Shown: one piece after another, positions 3,121-31,236 of the stretch
Layout of the letters: each line of letters begins with the position of its first letter
Position numbering within the stretch: the stretch's first letter is position 1
Assembly: GCA_963590445.1 (NCBI GenBank)
Contig: CAVAPI010000001.1
Span: 1 to 54,082 of the forward strand
Origin: Lachnospiraceae bacterium
Lineage (GTDB): Bacteria; Bacteroidota; Bacteroidia; Bacteroidales; Bacteroidaceae
Length of the DNA: 54,082 nucleotides
Direction of reading: 5' to 3'
Program-made: the position numbers and the translations under genes
Notes under the pieces: generated by a model
Databases searched by the model: none
The model's input: only the letters and a program-made list of their open reading frames with translations
Told to the model about the DNA's origin: nothing

Positions 3121-3181
3121 GGAGTGTGCGCCTTGTGAAAATGAGGGTGCCGGTGCGCCTCTTGTTTTCGGCTTTTTTGCT

Positions 3182-15571: not shown

Positions 15572-15652
15572 CATCAGCTAAGCTCTGGTGCAAAGGCAGA
15601 TATGGTTGGTGCAACGCCTGCTAAGTTTGCCTTTGCGCTTGTCTGCGGCAAA

Positions 15653-15799
15653 TGCGCACGAATGGTACGCCGGGGGCGACGTACCTCCTAACGCAAGGGC
15701 AAACTTACATTGCCCGAAGACTTCAGCGCGGCCTTCAGGAGGTACGGCCCCCCCGCCGTACCAAAGAAAGCGTGATCTTTAAGTGTACCTGTGCTTGGG
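15653..15799. repeat. REP-doublet (REPIN-like) element copy 1
   Basis: Inverted palindromic units TGGTACG..CGTACCTCCT (15663-15689) / AGGAGGTACG..CGTACCA (15737-15763), then tail AAAGCGTGATCTTTAAGTGT. Confidence 0.75.
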
Positions 15800-15832
15800 C
15801 TATGCAGTAGGCTTTTGCCGAAATTCTCCCTT

Positions 15833-15976
15833 GAATGGTACGGGGGCTCCGCACCTCCTGCGAAGACAAGCAGCAAAACATCTCATATGGAAACCTCAGA
15901 AACGGCGCAAGCCTTAGGAGGTACGGTGCCCTCGCCGTACCAAAAAAGCGTTAGCTTTAAGTGTCCTGCGCTTGGG
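15833..15976. repeat. REP-doublet (REPIN-like) element copy 2
   Basis: Units 15836-15859 and 15916-15942, tail AAAGCGTTAGCTTTAAGTGT; a third tail copy lies at 16129-16155. Confidence 0.75.
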
Positions 15977-16215
15977 TGTGGTAGTTGCTGCGTCTCGTTG
16001 CGCCCAAACAAATCCCGAACGCATCCCGAACGAAAGCATGGGCAATTTGTTTTTCGCAATACGTGTCACGCCATGCTTTGGGGATTTCGCTGCGCCCGTC
16101 CAGATCCAGCTTCTTCCCTATCAACTGAGTACCCCAAAGCGTGAGCTTTAAGTGTGCCATCCACTAAATTCTGCATCTCTGTTTGTGGTTTTTTTTTGAA
16201 AAATGACCATTTTTC

Positions 16216-16246
16216 TTTGTTTAGTTGGCGGAAAGTGGTATCTTTG
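16216..16246 (+). promoter_or_regulatory. Bacteroidetes promoter (-33 TTTG, -7 TATCTTTG) for the T9SS-protein cassette
   Basis: TTTG 16216-16219, 19-nt spacer, TATCTTTG 16239-16246. Confidence 0.75.
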
Positions 16247-16369: not shown

Positions 16370-19049
16370 ATGAGAAAACAGTTACTTTTCGTGGCTTTAT
16401 CCGCCCTTATTGGGGGGGGGTAATTTAGCACTCGCAGACACCTCTGTGCTCACTACTGAGGACGGGTGGGCTAAAATCACTTCGATAACCCAATCGGACA
16501 TTGCAGACAATTATTACGTTTTCGTTGACAACGATGCTGATTTGATGCTTGGCCTTGCTTCAAGCACAACCCAAAGCAACAATGCAATGTTCTATCAGGC
16601 ATCAGTTTCTGACCTTACTAAGGACCTCGCCAAAGTTTGGATGCTTGAGGTTAACGGCGAAAACTATGGCTTGAGGAACTTAAGCCTTAACGCTTACCAA
16701 TTTCAGACGGAATATAGCGGAAGCCTAAACAGTCTTAATTGGCGCACTAACGACCAGGACGCTTCCATTTCTTGGACAGGTTTAGGCTTGAGCTATGCCG
16801 ATGGAGCATGGTCGCTGACCTCCACACAATACTCGCGTCCTTTGGGTATTTACAATAATGGGACGGGTAGTCCCGCAGAAGGCAACGAGTTGGGGGCTAA
16901 CGATGCCGGTAAAGGACAGAAATTCCAGATTTACAGCATTCCCAAAGCCACGTTCAACGCTAAATTGTTGGCCGGTGCAAGTGCAGAAAGTGCCGTTGAC
17001 GCTACCGCACTTATATACAATCCGACATTCGACTATAAGAACAACAATGGGCGAATCGGCTGTTGGTCGGGTACTGTTACCTATCAGACAAAAGGCAACA
17101 GCGGCAATTATAACTATGGCAATGGCGCTATAGAGATGTATCATATGCCTTCTTTCGACCTCAACCAGACTTTGACCAATCTTCCCAGTGGCAAATATCG
17201 GGTGAGTGTGCAGGTAGTGCAGTCGGGAACCTATACCGCTGAGCTTTATGCAACGAGCAACGGCACCACTAAAACCATGACAGCCAACACCGCAACGAGC
17301 GGAAATTTTGCAGACAATGCCCAGGCTTTGGCAGCCGACCGGACTAAAGGCAAGATAACAGTAGAGGTAGTTGTTGATGATGGCAATATGACTATCGGTT
17401 TGAGAGATGCCAGTTCTTCAAGCTCATGGATTGTTTTCGACAACTTCACCATGTCATATCTCGGCACTGTTGACATCTCAGAGTATGTCACAGCATACGA
17501 GACAGCACTCGCAGCGGCAAAGGCCGTCAATCAGGAAAGCCCGATGAACGGGGATGTACTCACGGCTTTGACCACAGCATTGAGTGACTATGGCAGCGTT
17601 GACGAGACCAGTCAGGCCGCTCTTGTTGCCGCTACAGGCGCGCTGAACACGGCCACCGCAAACGCCACGGCTTCTATCGCAAGCTATGCAAAGGCCAATA
17701 CGGTTCTTGAAAACACGCTGAAGTTTATTGAAAGCACCAACTTCTACACCGCAGATGCCCTCACAGCCTATCAGACCAGCGACTATACTACTCCAAAAGG
17801 CAAGTATGACGCACGGACGCTGACCGATGCAGAGGCTGCCGCTCTGCAAGATCCGTATGCTTTAGGCTCACATAAAGTGGAGCGTAACGTATGGTCTTTG
17901 CTCCGCAGCACGTGGTCTGACACTTCTCTCAGCATCAATACTTGGTCAACGGAGGGCGTTAGTGACGGCTCAAACTTTGTCGTTCCGTTCGTAGAGTGGT
18001 GGGTTGTTGACTCAAGCACGCTTCCTGCCGGCACAAAGACAGGTACACTCGGCGGTCTGACTACCGGTAAGGTGTGTGAAGTTTCTGCCAATGTACGTGT
18101 GCGCCAGTCCAATAGCCAGACTGAAGTCAAGGGCGTGACGATGGATGTGAACGGCGGAGCATCGGTTAATGTATGCGACGGTGATAAGATAGGTTCATCA
18201 CAGCTGTATCTGAAGAAAGAAACCAAGACATACGGCCTGGTAGGTGAGGACGGCAACCTGAACGTTAACTTCACCGCAGCGGACGGTAACACCATCAGCT
18301 GGCTTGCATTCAAGGATGTGAACTACACCGCTACGGACATCGCGGTGCTTGATGAGGACGGCGACAACAGCTCTGTTGCGGCTGCCGAAAACACCAATAT
18401 CGGTGTGAAACGCTCGTTCACGGCTTACACGTGGAACTCGGTTGTGCTGCCGTTCGACATGACTTACTCGCAGGTGCAGGCTCTCTTCGGCAGCGGAACC
18501 AAGACTGCCGTATATACAGGTGCCACGGCTGACGATGCAACCAAGGCCATCACCCTCAATTTCTCGACCAGTGAGGGCAACAATGTGTCCATCAAGGCCA
18601 ACACACCTTGCTTGGTACGCCCGGCAAAGGCCGTGACTTTCGCCGTGGCTGAAGACGTTAACGTTGTAACTCCCGCCTCCTCACCGGAAGTGACCGACGC
18701 TTTGGTCAAGTTCGTGGGCACTTACAAGAAGGGAGGCCTGACTGTCACCGATCAGGACTTCTTCCTGAGCACCGACAACAAGCTCTACCGTGCCCAGGGA
18801 GGCGAAAGCATCAAGGCCTTCCGCGCCATTTTCCGTCTCGATCCCGCCACCAGTTCTGACGCAAAGGTAGTGATGTCGCTCGACGGACTGGACGATACGA
18901 CCTCTATCCAGAGCGTCGGCAAGCCCCGGAGCGCACAGTACAATGTGTATAACCTCGCCGGACAGGTGGTAAAGCGCAACGCCGCTTCTCTGGACGGCCT
19001 CCAGAAGGGTCTCTACATCGTCAACGGCAAGAAGGTAGTGGTAGAGTAA
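16370..19049 (+). CDS. Large secreted/surface protein with T9SS-type C-terminal domain, frameshifted at a G9 tract in the signal peptide (about 892 aa if restored)
   Basis: ATG 16370 gives MRKQLLFVALSALIGGG-stop; the +1 frame continues GNLALA/DTSV... to 19049; C-terminus TTSIQSV...YNLAGQVV...LQKGLYIVNGKKVVVE is a Prevotella-type CTD. Confidence 0.8.
16412..16420 (+). repeat. Homopolymeric G9 tract (candidate phase-variation or slippage switch)
   Basis: ATT GGGGGGGGG TAA; G8 or G11 would fuse the signal peptide to the 879-codon ORF. Confidence 0.85.
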
Positions 19050-19091: not shown

Positions 19092-19301
19092 ATGAAAAAA
19101 CAAGCATATGTAAAACCGTCAACACGCATCGTGGAGTTGCAGAATGAAACGGATTTCATGGTGGCGGCATCGGCAGGTTACGATGTCAACCCAGGCAGCG
19201 GCCTTAACGACGGCTTCAGTTTCGGAGGCCAGTCGGACGGTTCGCATGAGATAAACGCCAAGCGGGGCGGCGGCGTTTGGAGCTTTGACGAGGAGGACTA
19301 A
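19092..19301 (+). CDS. 69-aa small protein with MKKxxYxKP leader-like N-terminus and Gly/Ser/Asp-rich C-terminal part
   Basis: A-rich initiation region, 42 nt after the T9SS gene, terminator downstream; pattern resembles small hypothetical proteins of Prevotella. Confidence 0.75.
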   Translation: MKKQAYVKPSTRIVELQNETDFMVAASAGYDVNPGSGLNDGFSFGGQSDGSHEINAKRGGGVWSFDEED

Positions 19302-19375
19302 GCTCTTCCTCGGAGTCAAGCGGCTTACGCCCGCCTGTACCAAGTAAGTTTAATTGACCGGGAAAGCCGGTGTAG

Positions 19376-19410
19376 GGGAGAGGTTGTCGTTAAGACAGTC
19401 TCTCCCTTTT
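19376..19410 (+). terminator. Intrinsic terminator closing the two-gene cassette
   Basis: GGGAGAGGTTGTC-GTTAA-GACAGTCTCTCCC followed by TTTT. Confidence 0.7.
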
Positions 19411-19448
19411 GGGTAATGAAGAATGGGGAATGTTTCTTCCCTGTCAAC

Positions 19449-19571
19449 TGCGCACGAATGGTGCGGCGAGGGCACCGCACCTCCTAACGTTTGCCTGTAT
19501 CTTGTTGGTTATCACGGCTGTGCAATGGGAGGTGCGGCTTCCCCGTACCCCAAAAGTGCAAGATTTAAGCT
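19449..19571. repeat. REP-doublet (REPIN-like) element copy 3
   Basis: TGCGCACGAA + TGGTGCG..CGCACCTCCT (19459-19485) / GGGAGGTGCG..CGTACC (19527-19549) plus a degenerate tail. Confidence 0.75.
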
Positions 19572-19721
19572 CATTCTGCCTTGAATTGTGTAGTAGGTGC
19601 GGTGTCTCTGCCGTGCTCTAATTTTGCAGTGGGATTGCAAAGCAATTGCATGAAGTCACAAATGGCAAGAGAAAAAGCCGTACCCCTTTTTCTTATAACC
19701 CTCTGGCGGGCAGTTGCTTCC

Positions 19722-29290: not shown

Positions 29291-29352
29291 CAAATAAGGA
29301 CAAGCCGTTTCATGCTGCTTGCTGACCGATTGACAAACCAAAGGAGGTGCCT

Positions 29353-30171
29353 ATGCAAAAGTATGCCGACCACATAGTCCAGATAGAGATAGAGTCTCTT
29401 TGGAGCAACACCAAGCATATCATGTGGAATCTCGACCCCAAGGTGAACATACTCAGCGGTATCAACGGGGTGGGGAAGAGCACTATATTGAATAAGGTGG
29501 TGAGAGGGCTGTCGCAGGGCGGCGAGTTTCCGAGCCACATGCTCAAGGGAGTGCGCATAAAGGTAAGCCCGGAGGACGCAAGGTGGATACGCTATGACAT
29601 AATCCGCAGCTTTGACCGTCCGCTCATGGGCAGTGACACCGTAAACCGCATCGTTGACGCGCCCGTAGCCACCGAACTCGACTGGCAGCTCTACCAGTTG
29701 CAGCGCAAATACCTCGACTATCAGGTTAATATAGGCAACCGCATCATCGAAGTGTTGCAGGGCGGCGATGCTGACGGTGCGGCCAAGGCGCAGGAAATAT
29801 CCGCCCCGAAGAAGAAATTCCAGGACTTGATGGACAAACTGTTTGCCGAAACGGGCAAGCAGCTCGTGCGCACGAGCAACGAGATACTCTTTTCGCAGAT
29901 GGGGGAGCGGCTTACGCCCTACCAACTGTCGAGCGGCGAGAAACAGATGCTCGCCATACTGCTGACAGTGCTCATAGAAGACCGGCAGCATTACGTCCTT
30001 TTCATGGACGAACCGGAGGTCAGCCTCCATGTGGACTGGCAACAGAAGCTCATAGAGATGATTTTGGAGCTTAATCCCAACGTGCAGATTGTGCTTACCA
30101 CCCACTCTCCGGCCGTCATAATGAACGGCTGGATGGACAAGGTGACCGAGGTGAGCGACATAACGCTGTGA
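29353..30171 (+). CDS. Soluble ABC-type ATPase (AAA_21/AAA_15-like; AriA-like)
   Basis: Walker A GINGVGKS, signature LSSGEKQ, Walker B/D-loop FMDEPEVSLH.DWQ, H-loop TTHSP; no permease partner. Confidence 0.85.
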   Translation: MQKYADHIVQIEIESLWSNTKHIMWNLDPKVNILSGINGVGKSTILNKVVRGLSQGGEFPSHMLKGVRIKVSPEDARWIRYDIIRSFDRPLMGSDTVNRIVDAPVATELDWQLYQLQRKYLDYQVNIGNRIIEVLQGGDADGAAKAQEISAPKKKFQDLMDKLFAETGKQLVRTSNEILFSQMGERLTPYQLSSGEKQMLAILLTVLIEDRQHYVLFMDEPEVSLHVDWQQKLIEMILELNPNVQIVLTTHSPAVIMNGWMDKVTEVSDITL

Positions 30172-30210
30172 CCTGTTACGCAAAGTTCAACCACTTTAAC
30201 TTTCCAAAGC

Positions 30211-31236
30211 GTGGGCAGAAGGCTTAATGACAGCCTCAATTCGAGGTATCTGGAGGCGGCCAACCGGCTCAACTCGAAGAGTCGCCGGCGCAGGATTGTG
30301 GCTTACGTGGAAAGTTACGACGACATATTCTTCTGGCGCACCGTGTTGGGACGTTTTGAGGACAAGACACGCTACTTCGAGGTTATGCTTCCGTCGCACG
30401 ACACGCTCATGCGCGGCAAGAAGTCGGTGCTTATGAACTTCATAGGCAACAGCACAGGCCCGGATATGATTGCCTGCGTCGATGCAGACTACGACTTTCT
30501 GATGCAGGGGGCCACTGATACGTCGAGGCGGATAGTGGACAGCCCATACGTGTTCCACACTTACGCCTATTCAATAGAGAACCTGCAGTGCTATGCGCCC
30601 AGCCTTCACGACGTTTGCGTGATGGTTACGCTCAACGACCACGCCATTTTCGACTTTGAGGAGTTCATGCGCCAGTTCTCCGTGGCGTGCTATCCGCTGC
30701 TCGTATGGTCGGTCTTGATGTACCGCACGGGTCGCCACTCGGAGTTCTCCCTCACCAGCCTGTGCCAAACGACCGAGCTGGGCAAGTTCAATCCCGACCG
30801 CGCCGTTGAATGTATAGAGAATTTGCGGCGGAAGGTGCAGCGTAAGGTGAGCCAGCTGCAGCACCGCTACCCTGAAGCCAAGGCCCCGTACCTGCAGCTG
30901 CGCCGGGAACTGGCCGGACTTGGCGTGTTGCCGGAAAACACCTACCTGTTCATGCAGGGCCACCATATCTTTGACGCCATAGTAGTGCCTGTGCTGACCC
31001 GCGTGTGTGCCCGCTTGCGGCTGGAACGCGAGCAGGAAATAAGCCGTACATCCGCCCATGACACCCAGAGGCGCAACGAGATGTCGTGCTATGAGCACAG
31101 CCTGATGGACATACGTTCCATGCTTAAGAAGAATATGGGCTACAAGGACTGCCCCCTGTTTGCGAGAGTGCAGCAGGATGTGGCTGACTATTTGGAAAGA
31201 GGGCGGCAGGATGAGTCCGCCCAAACGGACGCTTGA
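30211..31236 (+). CDS. DUF4435-type TOPRIM-fold protein (AriB-like putative nuclease)
   Basis: TOPRIM glutamate motif VAYVESYDD, GK..V, DxD motif CVDADYD, Y.IEN motif, QGH; directly downstream of the ATPase. Confidence 0.75.
   Translation: MGRRLNDSLNSRYLEAANRLNSKSRRRRIVAYVESYDDIFFWRTVLGRFEDKTRYFEVMLPSHDTLMRGKKSVLMNFIGNSTGPDMIACVDADYDFLMQGATDTSRRIVDSPYVFHTYAYSIENLQCYAPSLHDVCVMVTLNDHAIFDFEEFMRQFSVACYPLLVWSVLMYRTGRHSEFSLTSLCQTTELGKFNPDRAVECIENLRRKVQRKVSQLQHRYPEAKAPYLQLRRELAGLGVLPENTYLFMQGHHIFDAIVVPVLTRVCARLRLEREQEISRTSAHDTQRRNEMSCYEHSLMDIRSMLKKNMGYKDCPLFARVQQDVADYLERGRQDESAQTDA

Follow-up and report, generated by a model that had tools for sequence, protein, structure and literature searches.

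Why should the reading frame of a gene for a putative surface protein break within its first codons, precisely at a run of guanines, and then continue without interruption to the end of the gene? The question is raised by a locus in a stretch of 54,082 nucleotides (the window, i.e., the whole of the DNA that was analysed), which consists of housekeeping DNA with clpX, recQ, lptD, ATP synthase, and other genes. The original prediction had proposed an ON/OFF switch, and this reading is supported by conserved, length-variable tracts in the orthologues and by the intact state of the OFF genes. Slipped-strand translational phase variation is the best reading of the G tract, and the comparative sequence data make a real and probably reversible switch likely.

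The G tract and the frame break in the window

From the ATG at position 16370, the frame reads MRKQLLFVALSALIGGG; 14 codons lead into a tract of nine guanines (G9, 16412-16420, forward strand), and the TAA at 16421-16423 directly behind it closes a leader ORF of 17 codons (16370-16423, forward strand) that ends in GGG-TAA. The gene body follows in the +1 frame as an ORF of 879 codons on the same strand (16410-19049) without any further stop, and 20 homologues cover 93-100% of it at identities of 62-95%. The tract, which is the proposed switch, lies within the 5' coding region and sets the frame, and the window allele is out of frame. Start codon, tract, stop, and +1 ORF can be read directly in the sequence as they had originally been described, and the accompanying claim that G8 or G11 restores the product holds in silico, where tract lengths of G5, G8, and G11 yield products of 891-893 aa and other lengths yield peptides of 16-19 aa. 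According to its sequence, its hydropathy, and the N-termini of homologues, the leader ORF contains the start codon and the n- and h-regions of a signal peptide. Judged by eye, a basic n-region is followed by a hydrophobic core with a hydropathy peak of 2.86 over 9 residues, and ALA or AFA precedes the conserved mature start in the homologues; the full-length homologues share the N-terminus of the leader.

The G9 tract is the only forward-strand G run of more than five bases in the 54-kb window, which otherwise has 17 G5 runs, no G6 to G8, and a single C7, but since a plain base-composition model already expects 0.41 such G runs, its rarity alone is weak evidence. A trivial explanation for the broken frame would be a sequencing or assembly error at the homopolymer, with the real gene in frame. 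All sequences considered here are uncurated assemblies, and G tracts are difficult to sequence, so that database lengths can differ from those in the cell population (PMC9187656). However, 51 runs of 5-7 bases in the 29 long ORFs of the window (none of them a G/C run of more than five bases) leave every one of these ORFs open, and the window assembly is thus not generally error-ridden. In-frame G8 tracts are correctly assembled in two orthologues (L001 and L108) and at 10 sites of the genus within 30 codons of the start, and the lengths G7, G9, and G10 stem from independent assemblies. Moreover, G7 is genome-wide rarer than G8-10, a distribution that errors at short runs would not produce, and we regard an artefact as highly improbable.

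Upstream of the gene, a promoter-like site of the form TTTG-N19-TATCTTTG is located at 16216-16246 on the forward strand. It is one of two pattern matches in the window to the consensus TTTG-N19-TAnnTTTG, which we take to be a Bacteroidetes-type promoter, and TAnnTTTG is also present upstream of the gene in L001, L107, and L108. Directly 3' of the gene lies an ORF of 69 aa (19092-19301, forward strand) that has no family match and is conserved in the orthologue loci; the database protein P0021 combines it with an N-terminal segment of the lectin-like family in one chain. Behind it, RNA folding gives a terminator-like 15-bp hairpin (19374-19408), which together with a short T run extends to 19410 on the forward strand, and a similar hairpin is found in L001 and L106. 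Promoter, C-terminal sorting domain (CTD), and terminator had all been described as intact. The promoter-like match and the hairpin are indeed present, whereas the CTD match is below threshold and the hairpin is not listed in the consensus terminator scan of the window.

The surroundings of the gene show some further peculiarities. A T9 run at 16189-16197, located 19 bases 5' of the promoter-like site, may be another element of variable length. On either side, the gene is flanked by imperfect palindromes (23-45 bases) that are repeated in direct and inverted copies (15622-16158 and 19434-19614); they are REP-like and include the C7 run of the window. A gene pair encoding an AAA_21 ATPase and a DUF4435 protein (29347-31236) lies among the housekeeping genes and might represent a defence or toxin-antitoxin-type insert.

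Tract length and reading frame among relatives

Genus searches over 200, 61, 400, and 367 genomes, i.e., largely overlapping sets, resulted in four orthologues, all from other species. The original prediction had suggested a comparison of the tract in orthologues, and it is kept in all four at the same place, with lengths of G7, G8, G8, and G10 and in both frames. L001 (genome G001; 79% protein identity to the window) has G8 in frame, L108 (G299) likewise has an in-frame G8, located within another signal peptide, L106 (G005) has G7 and is out of frame, and L107 (G380) has G10, is also out of frame, and carries a TAG behind the tract. Together with the G9 of the window, two of the five DNA alleles are ON and three are OFF, a comparison that is drawn across assemblies and species rather than inside a single clone. 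Three of the four orthologue loci share flanks with the window (L107 and L108 the upstream queF region, L106 the downstream region), and the gene of L001 adjoins clpX/recQ instead. A metagenome scan added 18 loci, all from distant relatives (37-52% identity), and of 29 distant loci only L029 (G6) and L036 (G8, in frame) have an extended G run close to the matched region.

The OFF genes are intact. No second lesion is present in the bodies of the three DNA alleles, including L107, which was read to the end of the locus and whose full protein P0089 is intact. Pairwise dS among the five alleles ranges from 0.53 to 2.08 and dN/dS from 0.13 to 0.31, both measured between species. Judged from these substitution patterns, the bodies are under purifying selection, and recent decay within a species is possible; the earlier view that this is not a decayed gene agrees with the open bodies and the dN/dS values.

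The codon usage of the run is also informative. GGG represents 73 of the 677 Gly codons (11%) in 16 window genes and occurs 1-6 times per orthologue body; among the 42 columns at which Gly is conserved throughout the five bodies, none has it in at least three sequences. In 302 control ORFs, the first 30 codons contain 40 Gly-Gly pairs, just one of which has GGG as its first codon. Since GGG is rare, yet all five alleles keep the run, it has been retained at a site where synonymous substitution would have eliminated it. Interruptions in a run can also be purged by slippage itself, and retention therefore favours, but does not prove, selection for the tract.

The database survey covered 77 close homologues at the protein level, among them the call of the window itself, and six shorter fragments were dropped from this set. 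The three-Gly signal type comprises 24 full-length and 27 start-truncated proteins, the latter beginning at an internal Met or in a shifted frame, and the truncated ones were assigned to this type by cluster or nearest relative (for P0020 at only 74%). All nine proteins of the two-Gly signal type, which stem from only two clusters, are full-length; the Fisher P value of 0.003 for three-Gly versus two-Gly counts related sequences as independent and is hence overstated. Full and truncated forms are mixed inside single 90% clusters. Five of the six members of the window's cluster are truncated and P0064 is whole, and in two other clusters all members are truncated. The three truncated calls that were traced in DNA (P0066 of the window, P0102 of L106, and P0089 of L107) are all frameshifts at the tract, and the other 24 of the 27 are represented by protein only and may include contig ends or start-codon choice. 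Gene callers also shift starts in other families: in seven distant control clusters, 3 of 27 members start inside the signal peptide and 5 are fragments, and among 40 distant representatives a single one starts at the same internal Met.

A second signal type is represented by 11 proteins, 3 of them full, 7 starting right behind the tract, and 1 at an internal Met. In L108 (G299:C143, tract 3122-3130), which is of this type, an ATG that overlaps a TGA stands behind the tract. The seven database proteins start at this second-type ATG, and an out-of-frame allele might re-initiate here and give rise to a signal-less form.

The truncated majority in the window's cluster, the two clusters consisting of truncated forms, and the six shorter fragments are in line with a non-adaptive hotspot, i.e., a run that slips often in a dispensable gene, with OFF alleles as recurrent, drifting losses. 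Against this speak the conservation of the run across dS values of up to 2 in spite of the available synonymous alternatives and the three OFF DNA alleles without a second lesion in the body. The genomic distribution of G tracts, which bears on the same question, is considered below.

All three OFF DNA alleles fall into one of the two possible out-of-frame classes, namely that with an extra G, and have a stop in frame directly behind the run (TAA, TAA, and TAG); the protein P0101 implies a further allele of this class, a G10 in the species of L106. This pattern is the strongest argument for programmed recoding, which had originally been raised as an alternative: the extra-G allele would be the working form, and +1 frameshifting at GGG-UAA or slippage of the RNA polymerase would provide a reduced amount of the full-length protein. 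Some 50% of the three-Gly proteins appear to be OFF while their bodies are intact, and seven of the nine mechanically called out-of-frame sites in the genus are extra-G in a search that was limited to runs of at least 8 and is hence biased; both are compatible with recoding. However, the clusters with OFF forms also contain many in-frame alleles (in all, 2/5 in DNA and 24/51 among the three-Gly proteins), and the stop is a by-product of the codons that follow, as it arises from GGT-AAT or GGT-AGT (Gly-Asn or Gly-Ser) after a one-base gain. It is not conserved, and a one-G gain in L001 or L108 would create no abutting stop, which applies to two of the five orthologues. The motif G8+TAA is furthermore a genus-wide one that is mostly non-coding: in 61 genomes from the same genus as G001, its 147 sites amount to a fivefold excess over the reversed control with 29 (L077-L205). 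Three of three OFF alleles in one class corresponds to a P of 0.25.

Slippage alone may account for the direction of the changes. At G8 and G9 tracts of Campylobacter jejuni, insertions outnumber deletions 6- to 24-fold (PMC3401435), and a bias of this type would lead from G8 to G9 in the window and from G9 to G10 in L107 without any recoding; the G7 of L106, which lies two bases below G9 or one above G6, fits less simply. As outlined by Antonov et al. (PMC3711429), a repeat near the shift marks phase variation and a conserved shift site marks recoding. Recoding is, in our assessment, very unlikely.

The encoded protein and its proposed switching

Database searches gave no family match in Pfam or NCBIfam, and neither these nor Atlas named a function for the protein. 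The look-alikes in Atlas point to Bacteroidota, as does the SprA of the relatives, and we take the organism, an uncultured member of the Bacteroidales, to be Prevotella-like. For the first 346 residues of the mature protein, AlphaFold2 (pLDDT 91.2) predicts a beta-trefoil domain with a ricin-B/lectin-like fold (16479-16964, forward strand) and a CBM-like jelly-roll domain (16998-17462, forward strand). The assignment of the former concerns the fold only and is based on matches to beta-trefoil lectin domains with VIA Z scores of 14-15.6 and an rmsd of 2.4-2.8 over about 135-144 residues. The jelly roll matches TmCBM61 (2xom) with a Z score of 14.3 and an rmsd of 2.3 over 129 residues and also resembles CBM16 and a hyaluronan-binding module. 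Beyond these two domains, the full-length model, which is poor (pLDDT 62.6), contains a helical linker, another beta-sandwich, an additional beta region, and, at the C-terminus, a short beta domain. In the search with the good model, which covers residues to about 365, no catalytic or pore-forming domain was seen. Foldseek matches to Cry and other toxins (TM ≤0.17, rmsd >20) reflect shared beta-sandwich domains, and a toxin reading was rejected. The models are consistent with a non-catalytic, putatively glycan-binding and exported surface protein.

Variability within the protein is highest in the first CBM-like domain, with a mean identity of 61% versus 71-77% elsewhere. L107 and the window share 89% identity in the 3' half (17391-19049) and about 71% in the lectin/CBM region (16437-17500), and P0081 is also a mosaic. 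This mosaic identity suggests that the N-terminal binding domains have been exchanged.

With respect to export, the short C-terminal region (18900-19046, forward strand) resembles a T9SS-type sorting domain and matches TIGR04183 below cut-off. In P0064, a natural full-length relative, residues 844-885 reach 15.6 bits (cut-off 23), and PF18962 was detected in 2 of 16 members with an E value of 0.074; the region lies at the right position and ends in a beta-strand. SprA is present above cut-off in all four orthologue genomes. The original designation as a T9SS surface protein is likely, but the CTD score stays below the cut-off; the gene product is probably a T9SS-exported surface protein with beta-trefoil and CBM-like domains.

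In the slippage switch that we propose, the G run would encode the three glycines that close the signal peptide and change its length by replication slippage. An in-frame length would result in a pre-protein of about 890 aa that is exported by Sec and probably the T9SS, and ON cells would display the beta-trefoil and CBM-like, putatively glycan-binding folds at their surface. The gain or loss of one G would leave a peptide of 16-19 residues, and the surface protein would be absent. As the change should be reversible, the population would consist of ON and OFF cells, and the window assembly would represent an OFF majority. We infer that the benefit may lie in adhesion versus the avoidance of phages or of the immune system.

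Two known systems come close to this arrangement. In pilC1 and pilC2 of Neisseria gonorrhoeae, a poly-G tract is located in the signal-peptide coding sequence of an adhesin and frameshifts turn the gene ON or OFF (PMC13017665). However, the protein and the phylum are unrelated, and switching of pilC was shown experimentally (PMC13017665), whereas that of the window gene, which belongs to an uncultured organism, is suggested by comparison. The sortase-dependent pilus genes bbr_0113 and bbr_1889 of the commensal Bifidobacterium breve UCC2003 have a G tract that parts the Sec signal from a body with a C-terminal anchoring signal, and the tract is conserved across the genus and varies in length (PMC9187656). 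They differ by tracts of G10-G12, LPXTG/sortase anchoring, pili, and slippage documented by deep sequencing (PMC9187656), in contrast to the G7-G10 tracts, the probable T9SS cargo, and the lectin-like folds of the window family.

G tracts across the genus

The run lengths in the four orthologue genomes (G6 165, G7 16, G8 16, G9 21, G10 9, and G12 1) form a hump resembling the one in C. jejuni (PMC3401435), and 30 of the 47 long runs are followed by T. All four genomes encode MutS, and on this point they differ from the usual picture of C. jejuni. A total of 95 G8+TAA sites were read, 83 of them in 80 stretches hand-picked for flank length and 12 in G001 and G005. According to a mechanical classification, parts of which are wrong (e.g., L172 and L188), 53 sites are without a long ORF, 9 are located on an opposite-strand ORF, 5 lie near a gene end, 19 are located within a gene and in frame, and 9 are out of frame. 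Among the 33 coding sites on the same strand, visual inspection placed about 12 in the leader regions of signal peptides or lipoproteins, with tracts in frame in L141, L151, L154, L156, L157, L158, L176, and L197 and out of frame in L128, L152, L166, and L168. Other coding tracts affect glycosyl- and acetyltransferases as well as DNA methyltransferases (mostly below cut-off), and most long tracts in the four orthologue genomes lie outside signal peptides, among the matches listed. A scan for G7+TAA in signal-peptide regions had also been proposed at the outset; the exact motif occurs at 9 sites in 10 genomes, and the 8 sites that were read contain no clear signal-peptide case besides L106.

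The many long G runs in non-coding places, i.e., the 53 sites without a long ORF and the 5 near gene ends, agree with a hotspot that is merely prone to slippage. The concentration of tracts in signal peptides and in typical contingency genes argues against drift, and together with the evolutionary evidence given above it leads us to consider the non-adaptive explanation unlikely. Phase variation by slippage remains the preferred reading, and a second switch can be named as a candidate: two homologous Mfa1-family fimbrilins, both above cut-off (G031 and G033), carry the tract just behind the lipoprotein signal, out of frame as G9 in L168 (2500-2508) and in frame as G8 in L176.

Several individual loci are worth recording. 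Out-of-frame tracts near gene starts are present in L166 (position 2500; G014, a genome with 14 G8+TAA sites), L128, L152, L164, and L102, and the genes concerned encode a CTD-ending secreted protein, two lipoproteins, and an acetyltransferase and include a 533-codon ORF. Tracts of G8-G12 that lie inside DNA methyltransferase genes or where these genes end (L136, L160, and L172) are possible phasevarion-type switches. Finally, L005/L090 (G001:C96:17666-17677) contains a G12 in frame behind the signal peptide of a short gene (about 270 aa), which ends in the same C-terminal region as the lectin-like family.

The comparisons suggest that the genus has a poly-G phasome, which would comprise surface proteins, an Mfa1 fimbrilin, capsule enzymes, and methyltransferases. 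It resembles the poly-G phasome of C. jejuni (PMC3401435) in its modal length of nine, the dearth of G7, and the surface and glycan-modifying targets, and differs from it by relatives with MutS, a higher GC content, and many non-coding tracts that are followed by TAA. The mechanism is textbook knowledge, but descriptions of phase variation in Bacteroidales deal mainly with DNA inversion. The inversion systems of Bacteroides are comparable in that surface structures of Bacteroidales vary in phase, but they are based on a recombinase and not on repeat slippage, and the relevant passages of that account describe only inversion for Bacteroides and do not name Prevotella (PMC11868660). Literature searches, confined to open-access papers, listed no title or abstract beginning on poly-G switches in Prevotella-like bacteria, Bacteroidales, or T9SS cargo; subscription journals and supplements may hold phasome tables. 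A more far-reaching proposal would be that G8-10-TAA is an undescribed, genus-wide slippage element of MutS-bearing Bacteroidales and a second phase-variation system beside DNA inversion, with the 3' TAA as part of the element and leakage of full-length protein from the extra-G allele by transcriptional slippage or +1 frameshifting. We consider it distinctly unlikely; if true, T9SS cargo, fimbrilins, capsule enzymes, and methyltransferases would be tuned between high and low levels as if by a dial.

In the database, roughly every second entry of the three-Gly signal type lacks a signal peptide, and such genes are therefore mis-annotated as cytoplasmic or broken. The poly-G phasome of the genus may be readable from existing metagenome reads.
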